64,000 bases of DNA, taken from contig CAYOVH010000002.1 in NCBI GenBank assembly GCA_964407405.1, positions 184,053 through 248,052 of the forward strand, read 5' to 3'. Shown in pieces: positions 39,424 to 63,363 of this stretch. The stretch comes from an uncultured Candidatus Saccharibacteria bacterium (GTDB lineage: Bacteria; Patescibacteriota; Saccharimonadia; Saccharimonadales; Saccharimonadaceae). Under the pieces are notes generated by a model, which saw nothing but the letters and a program-made list of their open reading frames with translations, did not search any database and was not told the origin of the DNA. A program made the position numbers and the translations under genes. Positions within the stretch are counted from its first letter, which is position 1; each line of letters opens with the position of its first letter.

Positions 39424-39500
39424 TGGAGCCACGACTGGGATTCGAACCCAGGACCTCATCCTTACCATGGATGCACTCTAACCAACTGAGCTATCGCGGC
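39424..39500 (-). tRNA. tRNA-Thr (anticodon GGT)
   Basis: Reverse complement GCCGCGATAGCTCAGTTGGTTAGAGTGCATCCATGGTAAGGATGAGGTCCTGGGTTCGAATCCCAGTCGTGGCTCCA. Confidence 0.9.
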
Positions 39501-39552
39501 ATTGACTACCTCGATAGATTGTATCACAAAGCGACTTGGGCGGACAACGATC

Positions 39553-39819
39553 CTACTTGCGTGGAGATTGGCGCTTTTGTAGGCGTGAGATGATGAAAGC
39601 ATCGGTCAGCGCCCACACGACAGCATTGCCGATAAATACCAATGCGGCAGTGGCCGACAGTAGCAAAAAGCTCTGGCCGAGACGGTAATTGACGAGATTT
39701 GTGAGGCCCGCTAGGATCAATACAGCTACTGCCAGTGTGAGATAAACATGCTGTAGCTTGGCATGGCGGTCATTTGTCTTGTTCCATTGTTTGAGGGCAT
39801 CGATAAATGCGGTGTACAT
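39553..39819 (-). CDS. small membrane protein (2 TM)
   Basis: 88-aa ORF with two hydrophobic helices. Confidence 0.5.
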   Translation of the reverse strand: MYTAFIDALKQWNKTNDRHAKLQHVYLTLAVAVLILAGLTNLVNYRLGQSFLLLSATAALVFIGNAVVWALTDAFIISRLQKRQSPRK

Positions 39820-39944
39820 TTGGTAAAACTCCTTTATGTTTTCATTATATCATCTTTATTAATAATATGCAAGTTTATAAATTGCCGCTGTCCATCAATA
39901 CTAAAATGCCGCCCTAACAGACGACATTTTATAAAATACTTTCT

Positions 39945-40029
39945 TGGTGCCGGAAGTAGGACTCGAACCTACGAAGGCTTACGCCGGGAGATTTACAGTC
40001 TCCTGTGATTGCCGCTACACGATTCCGGC
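39945..40029 (-). tRNA. tRNA-Tyr (anticodon GTA, long variable arm)
   Basis: Reverse complement GCCGGAATCGTGTAGCGGCAATCACAGGAGACTGTAAATCTCCCGGCGTAAGCCTTCGTAGGTTCGAGTCCTACTTCCGGCACCA. Confidence 0.9.
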
Positions 40030-40041
40030 GTAGCTATATAA

Positions 40042-40118
40042 TGGAGCCGCTTCAGGGACTCGAACCCAGGACCTGCTGTTTACAAAACAGCTGCTCTAAC
40101 CAACTGAGCTAAAGCGGC
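40042..40118 (-). tRNA. tRNA-Thr (anticodon TGT)
   Basis: Reverse complement GCCGCTTTAGCTCAGTTGGTTAGAGCAGCTGTTTTGTAAACAGCAGGTCCTGGGTTCGAGTCCCTGAAGCGGCTCCA. Confidence 0.9.
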
Positions 40119-40262: not shown

Positions 40263-41132
40263 TCAATAGGTAGGCACTAGATTTGGTGTAGATTTATCGT
40301 ATTGGGCCTTTAAATAATCATTCGTGAAGTGGGCATATATTAAGGTTGTATTAATATTTGAATGACCAAGAATTTTCTGAACATCTTGTATACTTGCGCC
40401 ATTCATGAGTAGATTTGTTCCACAAGTATGCCTCAGCGTATGCGGGCTAATAGCCTTTGGTATATTTGATCTGGTAGCTATCTCTTTTATTACCCTCCAT
40501 AGATATTGGCGCGAGAGCTTCTTCCCAGTCTTACCACAGACCAAATACTCTGGATCAAACGAAAGAGTTGAATGGTAGTCTTGGAGAGCATAATCTGCAT
40601 CTGAGGCAATGAAGGTAATCCTCGATTTTCTCCCTTTTCCTTTCCTAACTATTATTGAACGGTCAAATATATCCTCTGTCTTAATGTTTGCAAGTTCTGA
40701 AATTCTGACCCCACTTCTCGTAAGAGTTAGAAATACTGCAAGTTCTCTCTTATCCTTACATGCAGCAATCATAGTTTTTTGCTCCTCTATGGTAAGAAAA
40801 TTTGCCTCACTATCTTCAATAAAAGGTAGATCAATGCTTTCAGGACGTATATCTGTCATATTTTTTGCATACAGAGTGGCTATCATGCTTCTAATCGGGG
40901 ATAGCTTATTATAAAAAGTTTTAGTAGCGTAGTTGAACTGTTGCAGATGTAGTGCATACTCATCAACCAATTGTGGCGTGAGACATTCTATAGGAATATC
41001 TCCAGTATAGTCCAAGAATATGTATAAAGTTGATCTGTATGTATCAATAGTTAATTTTGCTCTATTTTTTCTCACAGCCAAATAGTTCAGAAATACCTCT
41101 ATTGCTTGAGATAGATATATCTCATTAGTCAT
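40263..41132 (-). CDS. tyrosine site-specific recombinase (XerC/D-like phage integrase)
   Basis: Catalytic signature RSGVRISE...HTLRHT...LGHSNINTTLIYAH. Start set at ATG 41132 (MTNEIYL) with GAGAGGAG SD. Confidence 0.9.
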   Translation of the reverse strand: MTNEIYLSQAIEVFLNYLAVRKNRAKLTIDTYRSTLYIFLDYTGDIPIECLTPQLVDEYALHLQQFNYATKTFYNKLSPIRSMIATLYAKNMTDIRPESIDLPFIEDSEANFLTIEEQKTMIAACKDKRELAVFLTLTRSGVRISELANIKTEDIFDRSIIVRKGKGRKSRITFIASDADYALQDYHSTLSFDPEYLVCGKTGKKLSRQYLWRVIKEIATRSNIPKAISPHTLRHTCGTNLLMNGASIQDVQKILGHSNINTTLIYAHFTNDYLKAQYDKSTPNLVPTY

Positions 41133-41629
41133 ATAAAAAACACTCCTCTCTACCCTCACTAAAAAACGTTAATAATTCAGTGTAGGAATTTGGAGTGCCC
41201 GTAGGCTTTGCCTAGGAGTCTTGCTAATCGCCGCCTACAGCACGATTACTTGGGAGTCCAAATGCAAAATATAATTCATGTGTACTCTTATTATATTCCA
41301 AATCCACATTTTGTATATGTTTATTTTTAGACACAACTATCTCCCTGAATAGTACCAGAGTCAATAGATAAACCACAGCTTGTTAGTCACGTCTTTCTTA
41401 GCCGACCTTGCATTTCTTATTACGTCTTTGTTGATAGGTGATCGTACAACACCAGAAATACTAGCGATCTTTTACCCCACAGCTAAGTATCACTATCTTC
41501 TCTTTCTACCCTCCTGCGTACATCAGGTCGGAGGGCTTTTGAATAGTTGCCCTCAGAACTATCTACGCATGAGAAGAGACCTATTGACACATAGGTAGCG
41601 CAAACTGTAGTTATTTGTGAAAAAGTGAG

Positions 41630-41733: not shown

Positions 41734-41940
41734 CTAAGCATCAGAGTCAAGAGGCTCTTTGTTATCAATCGGTGTATTGAGTGCCGCCATTGTATTTATG
41801 ACAGTCACTTCTCCGCCCCATAGTGCTACTTCAAGCTCGCCAATATAGCCCTTTGCTCTTAGGTAGATGATGACTGGCGTGCCAAGCGCTGTAAATATAT
41901 AGAGCGCTGCGCGTAGTTTTGACGGGATGTTTAGTTTCAT
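41734..41940 (-). CDS. small membrane protein, holin-like
   Basis: 68 aa with TM segment RAALYIFTALGTPVIIYL. Lies immediately downstream of the endolysin. Confidence 0.5.
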   Translation of the reverse strand: MKLNIPSKLRAALYIFTALGTPVIIYLRAKGYIGELEVALWGGEVTVINTMAALNTPIDNKEPLDSDA

Positions 41941-41949
41941 AATATCCTC

Positions 41950-42795
41950 CTATTTCACCATTACTTTTTGGCCAGGCTTCAACTTCTTGTTGAAGTCCTT
42001 CCAGTCTTTTGAACCATTTAATTTTGCTATTGCGACCCACCGATCGGGACTTCCGGCATCTTTAAATCCAGCAGCCTGAGCAATATTAGATAGCCCCCAG
42101 CCTGCCTTTACCGTGACGTAGACTTTCTTAGCAGCTGTAGCGGTTTTATTATCGCCAGGATTGATCCACCAACCAGGCACACCTTTATTGCGAGTAATGT
42201 TTCGCATACCATTTGCTTGGCTAAACGTGTAATAGGTGCCTGCTGGAACGGTGCTGTTGCTGTGCTTGCCAGCTTTTGCATCGGCGGAGTTTACATACCC
42301 CTTGATTGATTTGACTACTTTATAGTCGCCAGTAGTCGGTTTTGGGGCTGGTTTTGGAGCAGCAACTTTCTTAACGATCTGCTTGCTTCCGACATATTCA
42401 CTCCATCCGAGCAACTTTAGATCATATGACCAGCCCTTCTGAAGCTTTTTGGTGAGGTCTGAGAGGCTAGAGAATGTCAGCTTATCCGCATATGGTTTAT
42501 GGGTGTTTGGGCTTGTATACGCTGTGCCGCTGCCGTCACTGTTTAGTTTTGCCCATAGTACGTGTCCCATGCCTTTATATCCTGAATACCATAGAAGGAC
42601 CCATACGCCATTTGGGACTGCATCTGTATGCCTTCCTTTTACTCGATTCCAGCCATCTGCAGCAGTGTTGTACTGGTAGAACACATCGACAGATTGCTCT
42701 ACATATGCCATGCACCAGCCAAGCCAGTCGCTCAAGACTTTGTCTCCCTGTTTGATGTATGGATCGAAGTTTGGTGTTGTTACTTGTTTATACAT
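41950..42795 (-). CDS. endolysin (CHAP-like N-terminal domain, central SH3-like region, C-terminal LysM-like domain)
   Basis: Cys in GWCMAYVEQ and His in GMGHVLW. Pro/Lys linker AAPKPAPKPTTG. C-terminal YVTVKAGWGLSNIAQAAGF...LKPGQKVMV. Confidence 0.7.
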   Translation of the reverse strand: MYKQVTTPNFDPYIKQGDKVLSDWLGWCMAYVEQSVDVFYQYNTAADGWNRVKGRHTDAVPNGVWVLLWYSGYKGMGHVLWAKLNSDGSGTAYTSPNTHKPYADKLTFSSLSDLTKKLQKGWSYDLKLLGWSEYVGSKQIVKKVAAPKPAPKPTTGDYKVVKSIKGYVNSADAKAGKHSNSTVPAGTYYTFSQANGMRNITRNKGVPGWWINPGDNKTATAAKKVYVTVKAGWGLSNIAQAAGFKDAGSPDRWVAIAKLNGSKDWKDFNKKLKPGQKVMVK

Positions 42796-42803
42796 AATGG
42801 CTC

Positions 42804-43094
42804 CTAATTTAGACGTTCTTTTATTTCGACTAGTGTGGCGTCGATTGATTTGAGCTGAGTTTGGATCTCAGTAAATTTTACTTGGTTGGTGGTGCTCTCG
42901 CTTTTCAGCCGTCCAATGTCTTGGGTATTTGTCGTTGTATGTTCTTCGATGCTTCTGGTGCGGTTGTCCATGCCTGCTACCCAGGTTGTACCGGTAACAA
43001 GTGCTCCGGCCACCATGATGAGAAATGCAACGGAAAATGTCACGCCGGTATTTTGGCTGATAGTAATTGTCTTGTTAGTACGGTTTATTTCCAC
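42804..43094 (-). CDS. membrane/coiled-coil protein of the lysis cassette (holin or spanin-like)
   Basis: GTG start. One TM (VTFSVAFLIMVAGALVTGTTWVAG) plus a C-terminal coiled coil. Confidence 0.5.
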   Translation of the reverse strand: MEINRTNKTITISQNTGVTFSVAFLIMVAGALVTGTTWVAGMDNRTRSIEEHTTTNTQDIGRLKSESTTNQVKFTEIQTQLKSIDATLVEIKERLN

Positions 43095-43160: not shown

Positions 43161-43189
43161 ATTATACCGCTTATTCTTTGCTTTGGCAA
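43161..43189 (-). promoter_or_regulatory. sigma70-type promoter of the lysis cassette
   Basis: Minus strand reads TTGCCA (43184-43189), 17 nt, TATAAT (43161-43166). Confidence 0.55.
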
Positions 43190-43221: not shown

Positions 43222-43641
43222 ATGGTTATCTCTATGTATTATTATGGAGAGTCTGAAATTGTCTTTTGCGACGACCATTCGTCGGATAAGCTAGATTTTA
43301 CGACGTTCGGCTTTGGTAACTACTCACTCTCCGAAGTGGACACCAAATTTACGTGGATTAACGACAAGACAATCTTCGCAAAGACGGTCAATGTGGGAGC
43401 TATGCCAAACAGTACAACAAAGAGCGTTGCGCACGGTATTACTGGTCTAGAATATGTCGTATGGCTTGAGGGTAGAGCTAGCAACAGCAGTGGAGTATTT
43501 ATTGCTTTGAACTTTGCAAATGGCGTAGGCCCTTCTTCTAGCATCGGACTCACATTGAACGGTGCAAATATTCAGATATTAGCTGGGGCGAATCAATCAT
43601 CCTTTTCTGGCTACGTGACAGTTTATTATACGAAAATCTAG
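43222..43641 (+). CDS. silent alternative tail-fibre C-terminal cassette (only the part from 43282 onward is likely coding, after inversion)
   Basis: Shares the in-frame peptide SDKLDFTTFG with the fibre gene. No credible RBS or promoter lies ahead of it. Opposite orientation to all structural genes. Confidence 0.6.
   Translation: MVISMYYYGESEIVFCDDHSSDKLDFTTFGFGNYSLSEVDTKFTWINDKTIFAKTVNVGAMPNSTTKSVAHGITGLEYVVWLEGRASNSSGVFIALNFANGVGPSSSIGLTLNGANIQILAGANQSSFSGYVTVYYTKI
43281..43312 (+). repeat. Inverted repeat, left copy (putative inversion crossover site)
   Basis: GTCGGATAAGCTAGATTTTACGACGTTCGGCT, 31/32 identical to the reverse complement of 44022-44053. Confidence 0.9.
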
Positions 43642-43650
43642 CAGTTCAAA

Positions 43651-44178
43651 CTATTCAGTCATATACCATCCCTTAAACGAGAATACGTCAGAATTTTTCC
43701 ACGTAAAAGGGACAGTAGCAGAACTATTTACGTAGCTACTTGATAATATTGCAAATCTGTTGCTTGTTTCAGTAGATAGGTATGCTACAAAACTATTAAC
43801 GCCGCTACTTGATGCTGTACCAACTGATATGACATTAACTGTTCCACCGCCAATATATTCATCTGAGCTAATTGGTAGTGGTGCTGTGAATATTAATTTT
43901 CCTGTTGCTGGACCCGTCAAAGATACCTGGATATAGAAACTTACCTTTTTACCATAGGCCATATAAAATGCCTTGATGACGGTTCCTCCAAAGTTAGTGA
44001 ATGTTGGTGTCCAAGTCTGCCAGCCGAACGTCGTAAAATCTAGCTTGTCCGACGTTATTGAGTTAGCAGCTAAATTACCGCCATATATAGACTCAATATT
44101 CTCAACTAAATCATTCATCTCCTCTGCCGTGAGGATAGCGAATGGACTAAAGCTCATTGAAGGATTTGGCAAACTCAT
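43651..44178 (-). CDS. tail fibre / receptor-binding protein (currently expressed variant)
   Basis: 175 aa. N-terminal constant part ends in SDKLDFTTFG, encoded by the right inverted repeat. Preceded by phage motif copy G. Confidence 0.65.
   Translation of the reverse strand: MSLPNPSMSFSPFAILTAEEMNDLVENIESIYGGNLAANSITSDKLDFTTFGWQTWTPTFTNFGGTVIKAFYMAYGKKVSFYIQVSLTGPATGKLIFTAPLPISSDEYIGGGTVNVISVGTASSSGVNSFVAYLSTETSNRFAILSSSYVNSSATVPFTWKNSDVFSFKGWYMTE
44022..44053 (-). repeat. Inverted repeat, right copy (putative inversion crossover site)
   Basis: The reverse complement reads GTCGGACAAGCTAGATTTTACGACGTTCGGCT. Confidence 0.9.
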
Positions 44179-44210
44179 ATCTCTACTCTTAATTGTAAAT
44201 AGTCTGAAAT
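44179..44210 (-). promoter_or_regulatory. Phage repeated motif, copy G (degenerate)
   Basis: Minus sense ATTTCAGACTATTTACAATTAAGAGTAGAGAT, followed directly by the ATG of the fibre gene. Confidence 0.5.
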
Positions 44211-44221
44211 CACTAAAAGTA

Positions 44222-44361
44222 TGATATAATAATCGTGTCTATATTTTTCAGCTGCGGAACATACTTTATATCTAGCTTAGAGGTGGGCAGCCATTACAAA
44301 AGCTAGATTTGAGTCTGCTTTGAAAGGTATAGACAGCCAGTGATGGCTGTCCATTTTTATT
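44222..44361 (+). promoter_or_regulatory. Extended -10 promoter, structured leader and intrinsic terminator ahead of the plus-strand moron genes
   Basis: TGATATAAT (44222-44230). Hairpin ATCTAGCTT-N21-AAGCTAGAT (44270-44308). GACAGCCA-GTGA-TGGCTGTC plus CATTTTTATT (44332-44361), just before AAGGAGG-ATG. Confidence 0.45.
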
Positions 44362-44376
44362 CCCAAGGAGGTACGT

Positions 44377-44718
44377 ATGGATGAAGAATATAGTAATCTA
44401 GTAGATATCGCAGCTGAGGCGCAAAAAGCTCAGCAAAATCAATCAGCTGGGTTTGCAATAGATGAGAATATCGTTGCTATTACTGCAATATTTATACTTG
44501 TTCAAGCTATTATTTGTGGAATTATTGCTACCTTTATAGCTCATGAGAATGAGCGAAGTAAGTCGCTTGCTTTTGTAACTGGCTTTTTTCTTGGTCCATT
44601 GGGTATTGCGATCTACGCTATTATTGGAGAAACTATCGAGCTGAGGATAGCTATTGAAGAAAAAGAACGACGAAAGCTTCAAAAGGAATATAAACAACCG
44701 GCAAAGGTTGATGTATGA
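44377..44718 (+). CDS. small membrane protein (moron)
   Basis: 113 aa with two TM helices (FFLGPLGIAIYAIIG). Strong AAGGAGG SD. Opposite strand to the structural genes. Confidence 0.65.
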   Translation: MDEEYSNLVDIAAEAQKAQQNQSAGFAIDENIVAITAIFILVQAIICGIIATFIAHENERSKSLAFVTGFFLGPLGIAIYAIIGETIELRIAIEEKERRKLQKEYKQPAKVDV

Positions 44719-45254
44719 GGATACCACTACGCAGAAGAAACTATAAGATCATAGCCATGGTATTGATTGCTCTTGGTCTAGCAATATCTATTAGCTTGAT
44801 GATGATTTATGCTTCTAAAAAACCGGAGCAAAGAGCAGCTATAAGTAGTGTTGAGCAGCCAGATGAGGAAGCTACTCAAAATGAACCAAGAAAAATAGAT
44901 AAGATTTCAAAAGAAAGCACTAATATTTCCAAAGGTACAACTAATAAACCAAAACAAAATGATCAGCCAAAAGAAAAGCCAAAAGTCTTATCGACACAAG
45001 AGTATGGAGAGAAATACCTTAATCTAAGTCATCCTGATCTCCAAAAATGCTTTGATACTATTGTAGAGGCATTCCCGCATAGATTTACAGAAGATGTCCG
45101 TGAGAATAATGTAAAAGCACTACGCGCCTGGTCATCGGTATGTGCTACTGAAGTATATCGTGTTTATCCAGGTGCTCCCGCTATACGATCAAAAGGATTA
45201 TGGTTGATTAATGATGACTTCTTTGACGGTGATACTGCCAAAAGCTACCATTAA
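44715..45254 (+). CDS. membrane-anchored protein with low-complexity linker (moron)
   Basis: 179 aa. N-terminal TM, Lys/Pro/Gln-rich linker and C-terminal globular part. 4-nt overlap with the upstream gene. Confidence 0.6.
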   Translation: MRIPLRRRNYKIIAMVLIALGLAISISLMMIYASKKPEQRAAISSVEQPDEEATQNEPRKIDKISKESTNISKGTTNKPKQNDQPKEKPKVLSTQEYGEKYLNLSHPDLQKCFDTIVEAFPHRFTEDVRENNVKALRAWSSVCATEVYRVYPGAPAIRSKGLWLINDDFFDGDTAKSYH

Positions 45255-46664: not shown

Positions 46665-49181
46665 CTAGATTCCTTGAATTGATATAGATCCTGTCTTTGC
46701 TTTTACTGTTTCATTTATGAGTTTCGCTATTCGAGTGGCAATGGCCCGTTCATCTGCCTTTGATGAGGTCATTACCCCGGACATAGATAAGTTAACTGTA
46801 ACATTAGTACTTCCCCCAGCTACACCGTCCTTTGGTAGTCCAGTAGCTTGGTTTACCTGTTCCTTCGGAAGAACGTACTCCCCTGCATGAACGATACCAG
46901 CAACGTCATTCTTTGCGCCAGTGCCAGTAAAACCACCACTTGCGAAAGCAGGAACAACATATCTCTTCCCTTTATACTCATTGACTGAGAATCCGCGATC
47001 AATATCTTTTTTATCTTTACTCTCAAAAACAATAGGTGTTCCTGCAACTTCTTTTGTATAAGATTTAACCTGATTTTTTCCATATTGAGACCCGTAGGCT
47101 TGTCCTGCGGCAGCACCGGCTGAACTTGCATCGGCTATTTGTTGTCTTAGACTCTTAAGCTGCTCATCACGCTGTTTCTTGAGCGCTTGTATCTCGTCAA
47201 GTAGCATTACACCACGTACTGATAGCACGTCATTACGATGTTTATTGAGAAGCGCGAGTTCTTCATTGAGTTTTTTCTGGTTTTCAGCTCTTCTTGCTTC
47301 ATATTCAGTCTTTGCAGATTGGGTTTGAGCATTAAATTCTTGTTCTCTGAGACCAGTAGATTTCTGATATTCTGCATTTTCTCGCGCAAGAGCAAATTGC
47401 AGCTCTGAGAGTTGTTTCTGATTTGCAACAGTGTTGTACTTTGATAGAAAGTCTATCTGATTTTGTAATGCACGAGTTTTCTGCTGGTGAGTTAAGAGCT
47501 CCTCATTCTGAGTTTTATTGAATGACGTCAGGCGCTCATTATAGGCATTTTTATAAGCCCTTTCCTCTTCAGTGAGAGTTTTTGTAAGAGAGGCTATATT
47601 CTCATTTTTCTCTTTAACAAGTTGCGCAAGTGAATAACGATAATTATCCCTCACATCCTGCATCTGCTGGTTGATCTTGGCTATTTGCTTTGCAGTATCT
47701 TTTGCATTAGTTGCTGCTGTACCAAGTCCACCAGCGGCCTCATTAACATTTTGACCAAATTTATCTGATAAATCCTCTGCGCTATCTAAATTGTCAATTA
47801 ATGATGATACAGCAATACCGGTACCAATTGCCGCTAATCCGCCCAATAGAGCTGTCAGTCCACCACTAGCAAAAGCACTAGCAACACCCATTGCTGTTAT
47901 TGCTGAACGAATTGTACGAAAAGCTGTAATTGCTAGTGGTACAACAGTTAGGAACCCAACAAATGCAGTTGCTCCTGCGCCAAATGCGATTGCAGCCTTC
48001 TGGCCTTCTTCATTCATACCTCCAAGAGCACCAATAAAACCACCAGTAACAATATTAGTAACACGCCCAATGGTTGTCTGCATCTCTTTCAGTGTTTGAT
48101 TTAGTTGAGCCTGCTTGCCTGCATTAGTTTCGGCCAGTACAGCAGAATCACCCTCTACAAGATTGTTAAGACGCTGCTGACCAATTAATTTAGCTTGTAC
48201 ACGCTCTTTCTCGCTTAGTTGAGAGACACTCTTACCCAATACCCCAGCACCATACTCGAGTATCTTATTCCAATTTTCGGTTTGTCCAGATAGATTACCG
48301 ATTGCGCTGTTTTCGGTATAGAATGATTCTGCTAGGTTTCCGACCGCTGTATCAAAGTCTATAGTTGACGATTTACCAAATGCTGCTTGGTCTTTATAGC
48401 CTTGCATTAGCTTTATTGCTTCTGGTAGACCGACACCAGCTGTAAGTAGCTTTTGTAGTCCATCGGCCGCAGTGGAAACTGTAATGAGTCCATCGCTTGC
48501 TAGGCTCTGGGCTGCACTAGTGGCTTCTTTCGCACTATATCCAAATCTCTCTGAGAGCCTTGATAGTCCTGCTAGTGCCGCCTCATATTCATTTGCAGCA
48601 GTGACACTATTCTTAACAACATTCATAGCCGTGTTGAGGACAGTTAGTCCAGCTACTACGCCGCCAATAGCAACAATAGAATCTGCCATTGAGCTAGTAA
48701 AGCTATTTTGGCTCTTATACGTACCATCAAGCATCGAAGAAAGCTTTGATTGCTGTTGAGATTGGTTTTGTACTGCTACATTGAGAGCATTTGTGGCACT
48801 ACTTGCTTGTGTAGATCCAGCACCATATCTTTGAATAGCGGCCGTACTTCGTGCAGTTGCACTGGCAACTTGATTATTTGCTCGTTCAACGGTGAGGAAT
48901 TGTTTTTGAATTTGTGGAGTATAGGTAGAGAGAGTTTTAGCCGTCTCTTGGGCTTCTCTCTTTATGGCATTTACTCGAGTTTGTGCATCATATGCGGTCG
49001 TTCCACTAGATGATCCAGACTTGCTAGCTGTTGTCTGAGCAGCTTTCTTAGCAGCCTTGGATTGATTGTCGTACGATTTTTGAACTAGTTTATCTGCTTC
49101 AGCAATGGATTTCTTAAGCTGTGCTAGATCAATACTAGCATCATACTTAACGGCTCCGACTGCTGTAGCACCAGATTGCAT
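46665..49181 (-). CDS. tail tape measure protein
   Basis: 838 aa. Long coiled-coil regions, a central Gly/Ala-rich TM-like block, and the expected position after the chaperone pair. Confidence 0.85.
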   Translation of the reverse strand: MQSGATAVGAVKYDASIDLAQLKKSIAEADKLVQKSYDNQSKAAKKAAQTTASKSGSSSGTTAYDAQTRVNAIKREAQETAKTLSTYTPQIQKQFLTVERANNQVASATARSTAAIQRYGAGSTQASSATNALNVAVQNQSQQQSKLSSMLDGTYKSQNSFTSSMADSIVAIGGVVAGLTVLNTAMNVVKNSVTAANEYEAALAGLSRLSERFGYSAKEATSAAQSLASDGLITVSTAADGLQKLLTAGVGLPEAIKLMQGYKDQAAFGKSSTIDFDTAVGNLAESFYTENSAIGNLSGQTENWNKILEYGAGVLGKSVSQLSEKERVQAKLIGQQRLNNLVEGDSAVLAETNAGKQAQLNQTLKEMQTTIGRVTNIVTGGFIGALGGMNEEGQKAAIAFGAGATAFVGFLTVVPLAITAFRTIRSAITAMGVASAFASGGLTALLGGLAAIGTGIAVSSLIDNLDSAEDLSDKFGQNVNEAAGGLGTAATNAKDTAKQIAKINQQMQDVRDNYRYSLAQLVKEKNENIASLTKTLTEEERAYKNAYNERLTSFNKTQNEELLTHQQKTRALQNQIDFLSKYNTVANQKQLSELQFALARENAEYQKSTGLREQEFNAQTQSAKTEYEARRAENQKKLNEELALLNKHRNDVLSVRGVMLLDEIQALKKQRDEQLKSLRQQIADASSAGAAAGQAYGSQYGKNQVKSYTKEVAGTPIVFESKDKKDIDRGFSVNEYKGKRYVVPAFASGGFTGTGAKNDVAGIVHAGEYVLPKEQVNQATGLPKDGVAGGSTNVTVNLSMSGVMTSSKADERAIATRIAKLINETVKAKTGSISIQGI

Positions 49182-54418: not shown

Positions 54419-56380
54419 TTAAGATGTTGCTTCGGTTGCGATAGCTACAGCGGATACACCAGCGCCAGCAAGTGCTCCACCTTTGTAGATTTCACTTAGG
54501 TACTCATGCTTGTTTTCTTTAAGAACGAAGTTTGTGAAACTCTCAATACTTGCGTCACCAACTGTCTTGTATGAGCTGAGCACCACGAGAACAGCGTCTA
54601 CGTCAGGTGAGGTTGTATCGTTGAACCACTTAGGTTCAAACACACCCTCTAGACCAAGAGCCTCTGAAGTAGTCGCACGGCTTGGTGGAATTGGACTAGT
54701 GCCGTTGGCGATGAATTCAAGACGAATATCTGTTAGATAGCCTTTTTTAGCGATAAGGTATACATCACCCTCAACTTCGATTTCATCTGTAGCCTTAACA
54801 AGCGATACGCTCTTTGTTTCGCCTGGAGCAGGTGTATATATAACTGCGAATGTATTGCTTGGAGAAAGTGCATCGGTAAGGATAGGAGTAAAACCACCCT
54901 GTGAAGCGTCTTCACGGATCTTACGGTTTGAGCTAGGAGAACGGCCATCACCAATAACAACTGCACGTTCAATTTCACGGACAACACGAGTTGGTAGCTC
55001 GTTCATCACGAAGGTTATTAAAGCACCAGTTGAGCGCTGTTGACGGACATCTTCTTTGTTAAGAGTAAGGTACTTGTAAATGTACTGAGCGCGGATAACA
55101 CGGTTATCAAAGTCAAGGATTTGCTCCTCTTTATCGACACCTTTTTTGTGACCACCCGCACGGCTAGTATCAGCTTCAGCGTCAGTGTCATCCCAGTCAA
55201 CACGTGCAACATCAAGACCTGTGTGGTTAAGAGCGTTATAAATACCGCTAGCCTTAACAGCATCTTCAATCTTAGTTACCAGTGGTGCTGGCAATACAAA
55301 GTAGTCAGCAGAGTCTGGTGCTAGTCCGTTTTTGATTGCGATATCTTTCCAAGCAGCACGAACACGGGCAACTGATTCTTCGTTTGCATCACCTGGGTGA
55401 GCAGCTAGAACGTTTGCGAAGTCTTCTACAGCTTGCGTAGATTTAATATAGTTTTCAAAGTTTGCTTTTGGTGCTGCGTTTGTAGGTTCAGCCTGATTCT
55501 TAGGCTCAATAACCTGTGCTACTGCAACTTTTTCTTGTTCTGTCATTATAGTTTCCTTATCTTTGACTGATTTATCTTCCTCTACTACTTCGTCAGTCAC
55601 CTCTGTAGTTTCGGTTTTCTCGACTTCTGTCGGAGTTTCTGCTTTCGGCTCATCTGTGGTTTTTGGTTCCTCAGCAGCAGCCTTAACAGGTTCTTTGGTT
55701 GTATTGGAAACATTTATTTCCTCGACTTTTAACGCGTCTGTTTTCTCTTTGATACTCATAGCGGGTTGCATAACAGCATTTCGGACTGTTGATGCGAAGC
55801 TAAGTGCATTTTTGATAGAGTCAGACACGGTTGGCTTCTTGGGTTCTTGAGCTTCCGTAGCGAATCCTAGATCAACTGCTTCTTGTGCTGTCATCCATGT
55901 CTCGGCGGCTAGTAGTTCGGAGATCTCCTCTTCACTCTTGCCAGTCCTTGCGACATAAATAGATGCAATACTGTCACCAGTCTTCTCAAGCATTTCGACT
56001 ACTTTTGATAGTTCATCCTTATTACCCATAGCGAATGTCCACGGATTGTGAATCATCATCATAGAGCCGGGTAGCATAATGATGTCTTCACCGGCCATAG
56101 CAACGAACGAAGCGGCAGAGGCTGCGAGGGCTTCTACTTTAACGGTCACCTTGCCATCATGTTCGACAAGGGCGTTATAGATAGATACTCCAGCGAAAAC
56201 ATCACCACCAGGGCTGTTAATCCTAACGGTAATATCACCTGTATGCTGTTTTAGTTCCTTTTTAAAGGCTTTTGGTGTGACTTCATCACCCCACCAGGAT
56301 GAGCTAGCGATAACTCCCTCAAGCAAAAGTTCAGACTCATTTCCAGCCTCATCTTTTACCCATTTCCAGAATTTATCCAT
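54419..56380 (-). CDS. ClpP-like prohead protease fused to scaffold-like linker and HK97-type major capsid protein
   Basis: N-terminal INSPGGDVFAGVSIYNAL...AASAASFVAMAG...MMIHNPW (S14 protease). Acidic/Lys-rich middle. C-terminal region of about 330 aa of capsid-like sequence. Confidence 0.8.
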   Translation of the reverse strand: MDKFWKWVKDEAGNESELLLEGVIASSSWWGDEVTPKAFKKELKQHTGDITVRINSPGGDVFAGVSIYNALVEHDGKVTVKVEALAASAASFVAMAGEDIIMLPGSMMMIHNPWTFAMGNKDELSKVVEMLEKTGDSIASIYVARTGKSEEEISELLAAETWMTAQEAVDLGFATEAQEPKKPTVSDSIKNALSFASTVRNAVMQPAMSIKEKTDALKVEEINVSNTTKEPVKAAAEEPKTTDEPKAETPTEVEKTETTEVTDEVVEEDKSVKDKETIMTEQEKVAVAQVIEPKNQAEPTNAAPKANFENYIKSTQAVEDFANVLAAHPGDANEESVARVRAAWKDIAIKNGLAPDSADYFVLPAPLVTKIEDAVKASGIYNALNHTGLDVARVDWDDTDAEADTSRAGGHKKGVDKEEQILDFDNRVIRAQYIYKYLTLNKEDVRQQRSTGALITFVMNELPTRVVREIERAVVIGDGRSPSSNRKIREDASQGGFTPILTDALSPSNTFAVIYTPAPGETKSVSLVKATDEIEVEGDVYLIAKKGYLTDIRLEFIANGTSPIPPSRATTSEALGLEGVFEPKWFNDTTSPDVDAVLVVLSSYKTVGDASIESFTNFVLKENKHEYLSEIYKGGALAGAGVSAVAIATEATS

Positions 56381-56476: not shown

Positions 56477-57313
56477 TTACGCACCCACAAATGAGGCATA
56501 AACAGTCGTACCATTATCGGCTGCGGCCATGCTCGTAGAGCCAATAACTGTGATGGTGAGAACCACAACTCCTGTGAATTGACGTTTTTTAACAGATACA
56601 GTAACTGAGGTAGTAGATATATTAGTTACCCTGAAAGAATACTGTTCGTTATCGTCATTGACTCTGAATTGGCATCCGGCTTGAGTTATAGAGCTAAACC
56701 CAGCACTTGATATATCAAATGTTACAGAACCTCCACTAACTGCTCCGTTTAAATAAATGCTTTTAGGAATAGCCGGTTTGTTTTTAATAAAATCGACTGA
56801 TGAGGTATTTGATTGGTTCCAGTCGGACTGCACTTGGGCGGCGGGTATGCTCGGTTTATTAGACAAATCATTGTAATTACCGGAATATGCAACGTCAGAT
56901 AATTCAGCGAGCTGGCCATCTGTATAGTCTTTAGCATCTTCTAACGCTTGGTTAGAACTACCAGCCTCATCAGCTCCTACGTCTGAGTAATCAAGAACGA
57001 CCACGCCAGTTTTACTATTCACTGAGTCAACAGGAACAGTAGGAATGGTAGGCTTATCTATAAGATCTTCATAGTCACCTGTAAAGGCAACATCAGCCAA
57101 TGACGATTGATCTACCTTATCATTGAGTGCGGATTGAGTAGCATTTGATATAGGTTTATCGGAATCGGATGTATTATCGACATTACCAAGTCCTAATTGA
57201 GATTTATCGTAAGGAACAAGCACACCTTCCCATCCAGTATCGTCAAGTTTGCGGCGCACAGTTTGGCCAGGATTCGCCTGTGTATTACCTGGTATAGTAT
57301 TCCAATTTGCCAT
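56477..57313 (-). CDS. fibre-like repeat protein in the head module (head fibre/decoration?)
   Basis: LGLGNVDNTSDSDKPIS plus the repeats VAFTGDYEDLIDKPTIP, VAYSGNYNDLSNKPSIP and VDFIKNKPAIP. Confidence 0.55.
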   Translation of the reverse strand: MANWNTIPGNTQANPGQTVRRKLDDTGWEGVLVPYDKSQLGLGNVDNTSDSDKPISNATQSALNDKVDQSSLADVAFTGDYEDLIDKPTIPTVPVDSVNSKTGVVVLDYSDVGADEAGSSNQALEDAKDYTDGQLAELSDVAYSGNYNDLSNKPSIPAAQVQSDWNQSNTSSVDFIKNKPAIPKSIYLNGAVSGGSVTFDISSAGFSSITQAGCQFRVNDDNEQYSFRVTNISTTSVTVSVKKRQFTGVVVLTITVIGSTSMAAADNGTTVYASFVGA

Positions 57314-57315
57314 AA

Positions 57316-57543
57316 TTAGTTCTCAATAACTCCTGACGCTCTTAGAGCTGTAGTTATTTCGTTTACTTTTTGTACAATATCTGCTTCAGTTGCGAATTCG
57401 TCTAGGTCGCTTATCGCTCCCTGCCTAACCACACTTCCATTAGTGGTATTTGTAGAAATTGTTTCGAGTAGCTGGTTATTAGTCTTTTGAGACGCTCTAG
57501 GTACTTTGGCTATATCACTTATAAAATCATTGTTGCTTGGCAT
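57316..57543 (-). CDS. phage hypothetical protein
   Basis: 75-aa ORF overlapping the portal 3' end. Confidence 0.45.
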   Translation of the reverse strand: MPSNNDFISDIAKVPRASQKTNNQLLETISTNTTNGSVVRQGAISDLDEFATEADIVQKVNEITTALRASGVIEN

Positions 57544-58975
57544 TTGCCTTCTCCTTAATTACTGGCACCTCAAGTGCCTTACAGCTTGAATTTGAGCATT
57601 TAAGTTTCCCATCTGAACCTAGAAACCTATCACACTCAGAGCAGTGAAGCTCTTGTCCATGTATGCTATTTAACGGTGTAACACCATCAATTTTGCTGGG
57701 GTCTGGCGCTTTCTCTACCTCATTACCCTCATCCACTTCGGGTTTATCGTTATCAATAACCGTAGTGTCGTTGCCCTTTTTCAATAGCTTATAGCTCTGA
57801 GACAACTGAAATGCGTCTACAACACTATCAAGCGACCAGCTGTAAGGTTCTGACGTGTAGGTGATGATAATTTCTGACTCAATTTTCTTAGTTTCGGCTT
57901 TAACCTTCTCAGCGTCAGACACGGTAGGTATTTCATACTTAAAGGTGATTGAAGCTCCAAGACCACCAGTTATACGGTTTAGCTCGTGGGTAATTTGTGA
58001 GTAAATACGTAGTCCCAGAGGTTTAACGGCACGTTTGGCAAATCCATTTTCTGATACTTCGGCGTTGTTGTAGGTCGCTTGTGAGTCTACACCTTTAATA
58101 ACTGCTGATACACCGTAGTTTTCAGACAGCCGATCGTCTACGTGTTTAAGTAGGGGTTCAAAGTCAATCTCTTTATTAGTCTGAGCAAATGGCACCCACT
58201 CTATTTGCGACTGCTGAGCGTTTCCTGCTGCGTCTAGGGGTACGTGAGCATATGAGACGTTATTATTATTGCCAGCTCCTCTGTGTCGCTCTTGGAGCTT
58301 GTCAACCATGTCGTTGTATTCTGGCACTGTTTTAGCAACAATCTTAAATACACCGGCAGGGATGGCGTTATTTTCAAAGAATCCATTTTGGTAATCTGCA
58401 ATATACCCATCAAGCGTCGCCCACTTCGCAGCTGCGAGATATGGTGAGTATCCACCGTATAGATTACCCGGCTTAGCGCCGCCAGGAATAGCAATAACTT
58501 CATCTTCTGAGAACTCTTGAGCGCCAATCTTGTAGTATATTTTGCCATCTCGATACTCAACGCCCGGACACTCTAGGAATGTATAGCCAGCGATATTATT
58601 GCCCTTAAAGCCAAATTCTCCGCCCGGCTTCGCTTCTCCTCCCTCATTACGCCAAACAAGTAGATATGTATAGTCTTGAGCAAGGACAGATACGCCCAGC
58701 TTTTCCATAAAAAGAGGCAGACTATCACGCTTATTAGGATGGAATAAGGCATTTAGTGCAGCGTGAGGTACTGGCTTACCGTTACCATCAATCGCATGCG
58801 GTACAATCCCCATCAGCTCATTTGTGATAGGTCGGACGTTAGGATAGTGGCTTGCGTATTCGTCAGATTTAAAGTGATTGTAAAGTCCATAAGGATTAAC
58901 TTGAGCAAAACTAGGTGCGCCGACTAAATTAACCTGAGCCTTAACTCCACTAAGAGCAGTGCCTAATATATTCAC
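57527..58975 (-). CDS. portal protein with C-terminal Cys4 tail
   Basis: 482 aa, in the expected position after terminase. C-terminus CSEC-x11-C-x4-C. Confidence 0.75.
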   Translation of the reverse strand: MNILGTALSGVKAQVNLVGAPSFAQVNPYGLYNHFKSDEYASHYPNVRPITNELMGIVPHAIDGNGKPVPHAALNALFHPNKRDSLPLFMEKLGVSVLAQDYTYLLVWRNEGGEAKPGGEFGFKGNNIAGYTFLECPGVEYRDGKIYYKIGAQEFSEDEVIAIPGGAKPGNLYGGYSPYLAAAKWATLDGYIADYQNGFFENNAIPAGVFKIVAKTVPEYNDMVDKLQERHRGAGNNNNVSYAHVPLDAAGNAQQSQIEWVPFAQTNKEIDFEPLLKHVDDRLSENYGVSAVIKGVDSQATYNNAEVSENGFAKRAVKPLGLRIYSQITHELNRITGGLGASITFKYEIPTVSDAEKVKAETKKIESEIIITYTSEPYSWSLDSVVDAFQLSQSYKLLKKGNDTTVIDNDKPEVDEGNEVEKAPDPSKIDGVTPLNSIHGQELHCSECDRFLGSDGKLKCSNSSCKALEVPVIKEKANAKQQ

Positions 58976-59225: not shown

Positions 59226-60395
59226 TTAGCGAATGCCGCCGTACTCAACCTTTGGCGTAATCAGGTCGATTAGCTTATACTTCGCAGCGTCCAGCAAGTG
59301 GTCGTTGCCATCTTGTGGAACATTCAAGCTCTTGCCGGTTCTATCCGTCGCCCAGAGGTAGCCAAGGTATTCGCTTTGGAGTTTGGTGCTAGATCGAGTG
59401 TAGTAGATAGTCATCTCTTGTATCTTCGAGGTCGCCCACTGACGGTATGATTGCTTACTGTCTTGGCTTTGTTTATTAGCACCCTTTAATGCATTACCCA
59501 TACCCACAAGCTCAGCAATGTCTTTAGGGGCGGAACTATCCGCAACTCCGAGTACACCAGATAGATTATTCTCTTTCAACACAGCGTCAATATCAGAGTT
59601 AAACATGCCTGTTCGATAACAGACTTCATCGAGTAAGTAGCCCTCGCCGTATTTAAACACCTTAACAATAGTTGTTGGGTCGTTCGTAAATCCAAAGTCC
59701 AACCCATAGCCTAGTAACTCAGCACCTTCAGGTATATCATCGACAGCCTGCCAGCCTGAATATACAAGCCCCTCAAGCTCGCCAATCTGCCCCTCGCCGT
59801 AAACCCTCCACCAGTTCTTATTAGGCTTTCTAAGTTCAATCTTTTTAACGATACTCTCTTCCAAGGCTTCGTTGTCTTTGTAGGTAGTAATAATAAAATC
59901 AACATCGTCACGTTTCGCCACAAGCTCTGTGTGCGCCCAAAACTCAGCAGTTGGGTTGTAGTCGATGATTGAGAAATCCCTCGTACGTACCTCTAGCTGA
60001 TCAAATATATCATATGTGATCAAGTTCGCTTCATTGATAAATAGAACATCACGACGTGATCCACGTGCCTTACCCTCATCTAGCGCAACGAATTCAATCA
60101 CAGTGCCGTTAAAAAACGTAAAGGTATGTTCAGCTTTGTTTTCGCTGATTCGATAATACTGCCAATAACTATTAGCCGTGAGGATATTCTTAAAATCACG
60201 CAGCGCGCCACGTTTAAGGTGGGGCATATTGACACTAGCAATCGTAATAATCTTATTTGGGTTTTTGGTAGCGTATTCAAGTAAGACCAGAAGTATCGCA
60301 ATAGTCTTCCCCGCGGAAGTTCCGCCCTGAACGATTCGCAAAGGCTTTTTAAGCGCCTTGATGCGATGATAGGCAGTAGTCTTGCCGTATGCCAT
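59226..60395 (-). CDS. terminase large subunit
   Basis: Walker A QGGTSAGKT, Walker B-like VLFINEA, C-terminal nuclease-like region. Confidence 0.85.
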   Translation of the reverse strand: MAYGKTTAYHRIKALKKPLRIVQGGTSAGKTIAILLVLLEYATKNPNKIITIASVNMPHLKRGALRDFKNILTANSYWQYYRISENKAEHTFTFFNGTVIEFVALDEGKARGSRRDVLFINEANLITYDIFDQLEVRTRDFSIIDYNPTAEFWAHTELVAKRDDVDFIITTYKDNEALEESIVKKIELRKPNKNWWRVYGEGQIGELEGLVYSGWQAVDDIPEGAELLGYGLDFGFTNDPTTIVKVFKYGEGYLLDEVCYRTGMFNSDIDAVLKENNLSGVLGVADSSAPKDIAELVGMGNALKGANKQSQDSKQSYRQWATSKIQEMTIYYTRSSTKLQSEYLGYLWATDRTGKSLNVPQDGNDHLLDAAKYKLIDLITPKVEYGGIR

Positions 60396-61428: not shown

Positions 61429-62142
61429 CTAATCCTTTCCTCTATTATAATACTCAACTACCCCATCCTGCATCTTTTTCTTCTCCCTATTAGCTTGCTT
61501 GCGAATACTCGGTAATACAGCTCGTGCATGGCTGTCGGGTCGTCTTAGGTATGTCGTGGTTGGTTTATCGCCCTTTACGAATCTAGCGCCATTTAATACG
61601 CAGTGTAGTAAGAAATCATAATTAGGTAGGTCCGAGTTCTTATATGGATGTTTCACCCATAATTCTCTTTTAAAAGGTGAATGTGGAATAATAAATCCAC
61701 CTCTTTCACCTCTCTGTAATGATTGAACCATTTCCTCTGGTGTTGGTGAGTAATGAGGTTCTAAAGATTGTCCTAGGCCGATTGTATACCACTGAGAACA
61801 AATATAATCATCACCATCCTTTGTGGCTCGTTTGAATGTTCTAATGGCATCTGATTGTACTTTATCATCAATACTTACAAACCATATCCATTCATTTGAA
61901 GCCTTACCAATTGCGATATTCCTGAGATTGCCGAAGGTTGCTTTTTTCTTGTATTCATAAAAGCTCACATTAGGATACCATTCTTTAAATGCTTTGAGGT
62001 CTTGGCAATCATGGTTTTTACCCAGCATAATAATTATTTCTTTTGGTTTAGGCGTCATATTCGAGACAAAGGCTAGGAATTGACCTATGAATCGACCATA
62101 TCCATCAAAAGCAATGCTCACTAGACTAATATCCATATTCAC
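61429..62142 (-). CDS. putative glycosyltransferase (GT-A-like)
   Basis: 237 aa. VSIAFDGYGRF..., SIDDK (DxD-like). The assignment is tentative. Confidence 0.45.
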   Translation of the reverse strand: MNMDISLVSIAFDGYGRFIGQFLAFVSNMTPKPKEIIIMLGKNHDCQDLKAFKEWYPNVSFYEYKKKATFGNLRNIAIGKASNEWIWFVSIDDKVQSDAIRTFKRATKDGDDYICSQWYTIGLGQSLEPHYSPTPEEMVQSLQRGERGGFIIPHSPFKRELWVKHPYKNSDLPNYDFLLHCVLNGARFVKGDKPTTTYLRRPDSHARAVLPSIRKQANREKKKMQDGVVEYYNRGKD

Positions 62143-62743
62143 GACCTTTTGGTATTGTTTCTAATTTTATTCCTTTTTCATCTAGTAAGTAATCGTAGCC
62201 TCTTATCTGTGTTTTGGATTCGGGGTCTATTGATTTCAACCATTCAACGCGTTTTTTACGATTCTCGGGGTCAATCATTTTCAAGTGATAGAGATTAATA
62301 TCTAATGATACTTTTTTATATTCAGGGTTAATCGGCCATGTTTTGATGTTAAAATCCATTTCTTTCATCCGTTGGTCGGGGTAGACTGGATATAAACTAT
62401 ACCTATGTTTCTGACCCCATATACCGTCCACCCTATAAGAATCGGAGGTATATAACTCTCTGAAATTGACTCGATAAATAGTTTTACTTTTTAATTTGGT
62501 GATTTGTCTAAATATCTTTTCAGCATTTTTTTCAAAACGTTCATCTGGGTCTAATTCTAAAATCCAATCTGCGCCTTTACTAATCGCAATCTCTTTCATC
62601 GCTTGACGCATTTTAAGCTCATTGTAGGACTTATTAGAGTTGTCACAGGCTACAATATCATCTACCCATTTTAAGTTATCTAAAACAGCCTTTAAATGAT
62701 GTTTGTCACGCTCACAATAAACGAACATTGCAACTATTTTCAT
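62126..62743 (-). CDS. family 2-like glycosyltransferase
   Basis: 205 aa. WILELDPDE resembles the GT2 LDADE motif. Confidence 0.55.
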   Translation of the reverse strand: MKIVAMFVYCERDKHHLKAVLDNLKWVDDIVACDNSNKSYNELKMRQAMKEIAISKGADWILELDPDERFEKNAEKIFRQITKLKSKTIYRVNFRELYTSDSYRVDGIWGQKHRYSLYPVYPDQRMKEMDFNIKTWPINPEYKKVSLDINLYHLKMIDPENRKKRVEWLKSIDPESKTQIRGYDYLLDEKGIKLETIPKGREYGY

Positions 62744-63363
62744 TCGACCACCACTGTGTCAATTAAACGACGTTCTTTTGTGATGGGGTCTGGATGAGGG
62801 TAGCCTAATGCGATAGCCCCACAAAATAATGACTTATCCCATGGGCTAAATCGCTTATAGAAGTATTCTCTATCCTGCACTCTCACTTGAGGGTTTACAA
62901 ATGCCGTATGTAGTCCTAAAGATGTTGCTACTAACATTGCGGTTTGAGCCATAACACCGGCATCCAGGTATGAATTGTAGTTAACCTCATCGCCGTTATC
63001 ACCGCCTTTGTAAGCTTCTGGGTTGGCAAATAGCATTAGAACTGTCGGGGCGCGGTAAATCCAACCCGTGCCTCCCACTAAGAGGCCGTTTAAGAGGGCT
63101 TTGTCGTCTCTGTCCTGGATAATCTTTACTCGCACACCGAAGCGGTCGCATGAGCTAGGACAGTGCCTTAGACTATCTAGAATCATGTCGAGCGTTTCCT
63201 GTTCAACTTGCTTATCATCAAAACGCCGGTTGCTATGGCGCTCTTTAACCAGAGTAATGAGTTCATCACGTTTGCCGCCTGGGTGTGTCTGATGAGCCAA
63301 GTATCTAGACTGAAATTCGTCTAACTTTACTTCCTTTATTTCTGCGCCAGTGCTACTTTTCAT
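62740..63363 (-). CDS. nitroreductase family protein
   Basis: RHSNRRFDDKQVEQETLDMILDSLRHCPSS is typical of the nitroreductase fold. Confidence 0.7.
   Translation of the reverse strand: MKSSTGAEIKEVKLDEFQSRYLAHQTHPGGKRDELITLVKERHSNRRFDDKQVEQETLDMILDSLRHCPSSCDRFGVRVKIIQDRDDKALLNGLLVGGTGWIYRAPTVLMLFANPEAYKGGDNGDEVNYNSYLDAGVMAQTAMLVATSLGLHTAFVNPQVRVQDREYFYKRFSPWDKSLFCGAIALGYPHPDPITKERRLIDTVVVE

Follow-up and report, generated by a model that had tools for sequence, protein, structure and literature searches.

A candidate head-swap inversion in a short receptor-binding protein gene of a Saccharibacteria prophage

The 64,000-nucleotide stretch analysed here (the window: positions 184,053 to 248,052 of contig CAYOVH010000002.1, assembly GCA_964407405.1, from an uncultured Candidatus Saccharibacteria bacterium) runs from bacterial chromosome into a prophage, in which the interval 43222-44178 holds two convergent open reading frames (ORFs) that share an in-frame inverted repeat. 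We consider this arrangement to be probably a genuine two-state switch that exchanges by inversion the head of a short receptor-binding protein (RBP), and there is no dedicated invertase next to its cassettes. A reciprocal crossover within the repeats, most simply in their longest perfectly identical stretch of 25 bp, would invert 43313-44021, whereupon the constant anchor of the expressed gene would read into the spare head (head B), giving a 161-aa protein, and the present head (head A) would become the silent copy. Progeny or lysogen subpopulations would then carry different heads and hence probably differ in adsorption specificity.

Inverted repeat and convergent heads

The arms of the inverted repeat lie at 43280-43312 on the plus strand, in frame with head B, and at 44022-44054 on the minus strand, in the expressed gene, where the repeat encodes the linker between anchor and head, (T)SDKLDFTTFG. 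As located by repeat search, the arms are 33 nt long, 97% complementary with one mismatch and spaced 709 nt apart, and the predicted invertible segment between them (43313-44021, 709 bp) contains the two head-coding parts only. Both arms encode SDKLDFTTFG, each in the frame of its own ORF, the sole mismatch is synonymous (GAT/GAC, Asp), and identity ends sharply on both sides at unrelated flanks. With up to three mismatches allowed, the repeat pattern occurs at these two places only in the window (0 of 100 shuffles gave a match), and 40-64 kb contains no other inverted repeat of 22 nt or more. Nucleotide identity, at 32 of 33 positions, is well above the demand of the shared peptide; we calculate a chance on the order of 1e-4 that ten shared codons would also agree at almost every synonymous position. 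With the region written as A-IR-X-IR'-B (IR, inverted repeat), inversion of 43313-44021 makes the minus-strand gene read anchor, repeat and then the continuation of the plus-strand ORF. A preliminary description of this locus had given the repeat as a 32-mer, which is real and one base too short; the common codon phase and peptide, the ORF coordinates and sizes (175 aa as 52 + 123, 109 aa after the repeat, stops 9 nt apart) and the in-frame fusion of the 52-aa N-terminus to the second C-terminus that it set out all agree with the present translations and repeat geometry. A direct repeat (D1, 43227-43259 and 44178-44210, 73%) was judged a chance match.

The expressed ORF (43651-44178, minus strand) encodes 175 aa, 52 of them constant and 123 belonging to the head. 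Its start at 44178 is backed by homologs that begin M[AS]LPNPSMSFSPFAILTAEEM, and the constant part upstream of the repeat (44055-44178, minus strand, ATG at 44178), with the anchor module MSLPNPSMSFSPFAILTAEEMNDLVENIE..., has an N-terminus conserved across homologs. The 175-aa protein has no Pfam or PHROG match; no GenBank phage carries either domain, and no relative of the whole protein is found among GenBank phages. More than 100 metagenomic homologs share the start M[AS]LPNPSMSFSPFAILTAEEMNDLVENIE, after which their C-termini are unrelated; Pfam domains of the C1q, BclA-C, PGP3-D or S74-chaperone type are present in some of these C-termini. When the 52-aa constant part was searched exhaustively, 291 cluster representatives at 50% identity were returned, and among the 150 representatives listed nearly all are 130-260 aa long, with the module at residues 1-50. 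Judged by sequence comparison, the N-terminus is a family-wide anchor module of 40-50 aa (hereafter also the N-module) that bears hundreds of different heads; the linker motif [ST]xK[IL]D[FW]xT[LF] is kept in part of this family.

Head A (43651-44021, minus strand; 123 aa and stop), the currently expressed head, has full-length homologs at 38-41% identity (P0002-P0006) and is modelled as a beta-sandwich by AlphaFold2 (AF2). In the AF2 monomer of the 175-aa protein (predicted local distance difference test, pLDDT, 73), an N-terminal helix (residues 18-32) leads through an ill-defined linker, to which the repeat-encoded peptide belongs, into the beta-sandwich. Its best PDB matches by Foldseek are avian reovirus sigmaC, the Listeria PSA gp15 RBP, the RBP heads of TP901-1 and p2, and adenovirus knobs, with modest scores (E 4e-4 to 7e-2) and a consistent theme. 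The RBPs of TP901-1/p2 and PSA (PDB 4ios, 2f0c, 2fsd, 6r5w) resemble the window protein in size (~160-175 aa) and in the order of N-terminal helix or anchor, linker and beta-sandwich head, whereas their matches to head A are modest (E 1e-3 to 7e-2, TM-score 0.35-0.45) and sequence similarity is absent. For the fusion that inversion would create, AF2 gives pLDDT >90 over most of head B and places the joint in a low-confidence interdomain linker. In the PDB its matches are weak, all at E>=0.01, and comprise P1 baseplate, R2 pyocin fibre and tailspike parts; 13 BFVD models of tailed-phage proteins match it at E<=1e-3, a few of them annotated as tail fibre or collagen-like fibre. On these models, both heads are predicted beta-sandwiches of RBP or fibre-tip type; fold matches support the receptor-binding role first suggested for the two C-termini, modestly in the case of head A and, for head B, weakly in the PDB but clearly among viral models.

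Head B (43313-43641, plus strand; 109 aa and stop), the silent spare, converges on head A from within a plus-strand ORF of 139 aa (43222-43641), which comprises 30 residues up to the end of the repeat and 109 after it. Ten natural proteins cover 98-100% of the hypothetical post-inversion fusion at 40-49% identity and combine the same anchor, the same linker and a head-B-like domain (e.g., P0115, P0044, P0096, P0076, P0101 and P0103; P0044 reads '...VTSDKIDFTTLAFGNYSTSEVNTGFKWIDG...'). Because proteins of this composition occur naturally, the fusion would be a viable protein type. The silent cassette itself aligns with anchor-bearing RBPs from the linker onward (SSDKLDFTTFGFGNYS vs TSDKIDFTTLAFGNYS), and head B retains the conserved core residues of the family. 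The 20-residue leader of the silent ORF (43222-43279, plus strand), by contrast, resembles neither the N-module nor the leaders found in short stand-alone proteins of head-B type. Since the match to anchor-bearing proteins runs from the linker on and the leader matches none, head B is a copy of an anchor-type RBP that has been truncated at its linker.

Could the 139-aa ORF instead be an independent gene, expressed from the ATG at 43222 as a stand-alone head protein, with the 33-mer representing a converted paralogous segment? We regard this as very unlikely. The ATG is preceded, 5 nt upstream, by a weak GGTGAG, than which the ribosome-binding site (RBS) of the expressed gene, GAGTAGAG, is no stronger, and short stand-alone proteins of head-B type with leaders of 15-25 aa exist elsewhere (P0117, P0121). 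Yet a promoter scan finds no sigma-70-like promoter ahead of the plus-strand ORF, which runs into the expressed gene with a 9-nt gap between the two stops and no terminator there; its leader is foreign to both kinds of protein while the remainder matches anchor-bearing RBPs; and the four sister cassettes described below have no start codon upstream of the repeat. The earlier statement that this ORF lacks a plausible RBS or promoter holds for the promoter and is overstated for the RBS.

Related lineages and the orientation of the segment

Loci of the anchor family from IMG/VR, JGI metagenomes and Logan were scanned by script for inverted repeats and convergent open frames, and four further lineages share the layout, each with a 5'-truncated, otherwise intact, inverted spare head. 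In the first, a 34-kb viral contig (L009), the gene (5983-6549) and a silent frame (6552-6983) converge and share an in-frame repeat, 49 nt long with no mismatch, whose translation is NIESLATGTGIGDSSV; the silent frame has a stop two codons before its repeat, and its sole start candidate is a GTG from the last codon of the repeat. In the second, the Ga0164243 prophage, the full N-module stands at the end of a 29-kb phage contig and a copy with no start at the end of a 167-kb host contig, close to a recombinase of Xer type, and a 2,710-bp contig carries the same perfect repeat at both ends (129 nt in total) with two different heads and putative lysis genes between; its orientation is unreadable because the 129-nt repeat exceeds the 117-nt overlaps and so breaks the assembly. 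The repeat of L017 has 13 exact matches (19/21 overall) at KLDF(M/T)T, that of L015 has 15 exact nt at IDWTT, and in both a stop precedes the repeat by 2-3 codons in the silent frame. The spare head is open to its stop in 5/5 lineages, and in 4/5 the stretch from the upstream stop to the repeat contains no start codon. In Ga0164243 (L022, L034, L036) the 129-nt repeat spans most of the N-module, and a segment of ~2.5 kb holds both heads and three genes in the putative lysis position; its flipping would also reverse these putative lysis genes relative to the late operon.

The repeats sit at the [LI]D[FW]TT linker in 3/5 lineages, including that of the window, and further into the N-module in 2/5. 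The likeness among the three linker repeats is due to their shared coding, and position, length (15-129 nt) and sequence of the repeat vary between lineages. Most other evaluable family loci are without a spare head, and no spare cassette is present at the P0016 or P0073 loci. Near-identical phages (L018/L029/L030 and P0002/P0007) carry unrelated heads between flanks that are 97-99.7% identical on both sides, in the same orientation. These sets are ruled out as two orientations of one segment and represent same-orientation allelic head replacement, which, as such alignments indicate, is common in the anchor family and has its upstream breakpoint in the N-module or linker.

Given this habit of exchange, it is possible, if on the unlikely side, that the inverted head B was merely stranded by a past head exchange between phages and is not flipped at a useful rate; inverted copies would persist since recombination cannot delete them, and would be at most evolutionary raw material. 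Ordinary allelic exchange in the family, the lack of a dedicated invertase, and, in L015 and L017, repeats that are short or imperfect and look as though they were decaying, all speak for such a static remnant, as do the single orientation, the missing junctions and fusions, and the difference in codon composition reported in the next paragraph. What speaks against it is that five independent lineages keep a tail-to-tail, linker-truncated and fully open cassette, that head B keeps the core residues of its family, and that the repeat arms match at all positions or at all but one (129/129, 49/49, 32/33) next to flanks that are unrelated. Comparison of these repeats with their flanks suggests continuing homogenisation by recombination.

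Several observations weigh against a functioning switch and must be set beside its structural logic. Assemblies with this prophage comprise the window and those of two Logan runs, SRR16797977 and SRR16798011, and all of them show one orientation only; four L009 assemblies from different samples are likewise identical across the segment, in one orientation. The predicted flipped junctions are GTAATTTAGCTGCTAACTCAATAACGTCGGAYAAGCTAGATTTTACGACGTTCGGCTTTGGTAACTACTCACTCTCC and TTGTCTTTTGCGACGACCATTCGTCGGAYAAGCTAGATTTTACGACGTTCGGCTGGCAGACTTGGACACC for the window phage and AAGTTAATAATCTTGTAGAAAATATTGAATCTCTAGCTACTGGTACTGGTATTGGTGATAGTTCAGTGACTCCTGCAAAATTATCAGAACT for L009, and a search for the flipped junction gave 0 matches in JGI metagenomes. 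A search of IMG/VR with the repeat also gave 0 matches, and because both searches came back empty we take this phage to be absent from the two collections. No fusion protein of the window phage or L009 is present in a collection of 5.8 billion proteins, by exact look-up and by homology, the only near-100% identity match to the fusion query being the 139-aa ORF itself (P0114). The GC content at third codon positions (GC3) is 0.445 in the silent head and 0.306 in the expressed head, a gap that hints at different phage backgrounds for the two heads and also fits a recently captured, not yet functional fragment. Two opposite-strand genes separate the putatively expressed gene from the tail operon. 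Finally, repeats of 15-21 nt (L015, L017), and even of 25-33 nt, are marginal for RecA-type recombination. Because consensus assemblies hide minority states, the single-orientation assemblies exclude only a balanced mixture; if switching occurs, one state therefore dominates in these samples. The host-range phase variation put forward in the preliminary description is thus upheld in its structural logic, by the anchor module, the natural head-B proteins and the four additional lineages, and not in actual flipping, the assemblies being of one orientation.

Candidate catalysts and known inversion systems

What might turn the segment over? Across the ~29 kb of prophage in view there is only one recombinase, an armless tyrosine enzyme of Xer type encoded at 40263-41159 on the minus strand (PF00589 and PF02899), 2.1 kb from the repeat with putative lysis genes between. 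Its best NCBIfam models are XerA, XerD and XerC, all below cut-offs, with weaker similarity to FimB/E-type invertases, and its place beside a tRNA cluster at the prophage end fits an integrase, which it probably is. No serine recombinase (PF00239) was found among the prophage ORFs examined by Pfam, nor in the 5.5 kb by which a Logan contig (L050) extends the prophage past the window; this extension adds a methylase and small ORFs and holds no recombinase of any kind. Six-frame tblastn with Hin against the window, the L050 extension and the sister loci yielded only noise at E>4. The earlier claim that the window has no serine invertase holds, as does, for the visible prophage, the claim that the one recombinase is the tyrosine enzyme, whose span had been given as 40263-41132.

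As a sub-case of the switch, this enzyme might be, or double as, an invertase that acts site-specifically on the repeats. We find the idea doubtful, and no less so in its more specific form, in which a single integrase would moonlight as head invertase, its target being a 10+6+10 site of dif type within the linker-coding sequence, together with an accessory third half-site on the silent side. Besides being the sole recombinase at hand, the enzyme shares the armless Xer-like architecture of the Rin invertases (PMC6109161); in the Ga0164243 relative, too, a recombinase of Xer type lies ~1.4 kb from the truncated copy; and a site-specific enzyme would be needed for repeats as short as those of L015 and L017 (15-21 nt). 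The window repeat can furthermore be read as a 12+2+12 (9/12 matches) or a 10+6+10 imperfect palindrome (8/10). The latter, CGTCGGATAA-GCTAGA-TTTTACGACG, starts exactly at the outer edge of the repeat and is equalled by 53/2000 shuffles, which is marginal, and a third half-site-like 10-mer (TTTTGCGACG, 43264-43273) lies 6 nt outside the repeat, on the silent side only (post-hoc chance ~0.002-0.005).

Against these points, the tRNA-side prophage end is the position required of an integrase, and known Rin systems have a separate invertase beside their cassettes (PMC6109161, PMC8778435). No att-like second site with the half-sites of the repeat is found in 69.5 kb. The 10+6+10 palindrome was not found in the L009 and Ga0164243 repeats and, by eye, is not conserved in the L017 arms; the repeats occupy three different positions and are unrelated in sequence. 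The window and Ga0164243 integrases are only 27% identical. The L009 phage has the cassette and no recombinase within 10 kb on either side (for the remaining third of its contig, DNA anchors and the terminase recovered only a few hundred extra bases, and the N-module was not found at 80 terminase loci), the P0073 phage has an integrase and no cassette, and the relatives show every combination of presence and absence of the two, with no correlation. For the tyrosine recombinase as driver, as first proposed, we accordingly find nothing beyond proximity. Dyad symmetry was also rejected as a common recombinase-site signature, being marginal in the window and absent from the sister repeats. As a separate observation, the interval 43264-43305 reads as an array of three alternating half-sites of the form CGTCG-N-A-W-AA with 6-nt spacers, TTTTGCGACG-ACCATT-CGTCGGATAA-GCTAGA-TTTTACGACG, possibly a protein-binding array and possibly a coincidence.

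For the catalyst of the proposed switch we lean slightly, and tentatively, toward homology-dependent recombination between the repeats, carried out by host RecA or by a phage annealing system such as the Erf-YqaJ pair of a sister phage. Homology-driven inversion fits the variable repeats and the family habit of head exchange through the N-module. Some other recombinase acting in trans strikes us as an unlikely catalyst. The Erf single-strand annealing protein and YqaJ exonuclease are encoded in the L009 phage (L046, 15945-17293), ~5 kb downstream of the switch.

Simple serine-invertase tail-fibre switches are represented by Mu G/Gin, P1 C/Cin and e14 P/Pin, which have an adjacent invertase gene, sites of ~26 bp with a 2-bp core, a Fis-dependent enhancer and a co-inverted chaperone gene (U/U'). 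As in these switches, a constant N-terminal part in the window continues across an inverted repeat into one of two opposed C-terminal cassettes, and inversion would swap the receptor-binding end and hence the host range; unlike them, the window has no serine recombinase and no chaperone in the 709-bp segment, and the protein is much smaller (175 aa). We know of no convincing match in the repeat to the gix/hix/cix consensus. The R64 shufflon with Rci and the type I hsdS loci have multiple segments and an adjacent, dedicated tyrosine recombinase. Like these systems (surveyed in PMC9881135), the window would exchange C-terminal specificity domains through in-frame repeats, whereas the targets there are the PilV adhesin and HsdS. 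The logic of Mu G, P1 C and shufflons, invoked in the preliminary description, is therefore supported by the constant N-terminus, the two alternative heads and the in-frame inverted repeats. Serine-invertase tail-fibre switches are also summarised in PMC6109161.

Among tyrosine-recombinase systems in phages, the Rin shufflon, known from prophages of Bifidobacterium and Eggerthella, combines several cassettes with an asymmetric rix site of 11 bp and shows inversions in sequence data, and a dedicated XerD-like invertase, distinct from the integrase, flanks its cassettes (PMC6109161, PMC8778435). The window shares with Rin a temperate phage, a constant N-terminus (Rc), a promoterless C-terminal cassette (Rv), the theme of a TP901-1-like RBP, and a tyrosine recombinase in the element. 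It differs in that its spare cassette is single, its repeat is 33 bp long and the cassettes have no recombinase at their side, only the integrase-position enzyme 2.1 kb off; nor is there an observed inversion or a short conserved crossover site common to related phages. Since the defining recombinase of each and the shared crossover site of Rin were looked for and not found, the locus is not a member of the Gin/Cin or Rin families. The nearest architectural precedent is provided by the bifidophages 689b-1 and Bb423phi2, integrated at tRNA-Met, in which an inversion of ~500 bp between 8-bp repeats is seen in both orientations between related prophages (PMC6109161). Compared by architecture only, they likewise have a small segment with the 3' end of a structural gene and a small partner, a short repeat and no flanking recombinase; the function of the gene is not known there, whereas here heads and anchor are characterised by homology and fold, and one orientation is seen. 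Invertible regions with no recombinase nearby, and inversions that persist after a nearby recombinase is deleted, have been noted (PMC9881135).

The principle is known from Mu and Rin, and it is the family-wide picture together with the missing invertase that makes the present locus a compact, testable case. If the proposed switch is real, an uncultured temperate phage family would hedge between two receptors with a 0.7-kb device that has no dedicated invertase, programmed host-range switching would reach beyond the enterobacterial Gin/Cin and actinobacterial Rin systems, and the family would constitute a natural test of whether short in-frame repeats with general or phage recombination suffice for programmed inversion. 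If the integrase moonlights, lysogeny and host-range switching would both depend on a single armless tyrosine recombinase as their control. The mapped boundaries of anchor, linker and head also offer points for head swaps in RBP engineering.

Prophage setting and neighbouring genes

The window consists of ~40 kb of bacterial chromosome (47.9% GC) followed by the prophage (41.9% GC), which continues beyond the window end. Its left end is the Xer-like recombinase gene, beside a tRNA-Thr/Tyr/Thr cluster (39424-40118). A Logan contig of the same prophage (L001) stops at 40093, inside tRNA-Thr(tgt) (40042-40118), which adjoins the recombinase gene; this suggests an attachment site within that tRNA gene, although the prophage lies on the tRNA's 5' side. 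Structural genes of the prophage include the terminase (59226-60395), the portal (57527-58975), a tape-measure-like protein (46665-49181) and further tail-protein-like genes, and on the minus strand the tail genes are followed by two opposite-strand membrane-protein genes (44377-45254), the 175-aa gene, the convergent 139-aa ORF, a putative lysis module and the recombinase.

The ORFs that flank the cassettes are membrane-protein and holin-like. On one side, the putative lysis module (41734-43094, minus strand; 96, 281 and 68 aa) is so designated from its position and from synteny with CHAP and M23 peptidase genes in relatives; the labels holin and endolysin found no Pfam confirmation and were dropped in favour of the putative, synteny-based one. 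A strong sigma-70-like promoter match, TTGCCA-17-TATAAT (43161-43189, minus strand), faces these downstream genes and is known from its 11/12 consensus matches only. On the other side, the two plus-strand membrane-protein genes (113 and 179 aa; with their leader, 44200-45254) break the run of minus-strand late genes directly upstream of the RBP gene. Before the first start codon, the leader contains an extended -10-like TGATATAAT at 44222-44230 and, at 44332-44351, a hairpin that resembles a terminator; this leader may be of the attenuator type, or the genes may be a moron cassette.

Other features of the prophage lie further from the cassettes. A ClpP-type prohead protease domain and a major-capsid-like domain are fused in one ORF of 653 aa (54419-56380). 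Between this ORF and the portal gene, an ORF of 278 aa (56477-57313) has many tail-fibre and minor-tail PHROG matches through one short stretch (residues ~35-70), and its position is unusual for a fibre-like motif. Between the terminase and the early genes lie two GT2 glycosyltransferase-like genes, a nitroreductase-like gene and a Stealth_CR2-like gene (window 61429-63363; L050 5311-5967), which could serve host surface modification, for example in superinfection exclusion.

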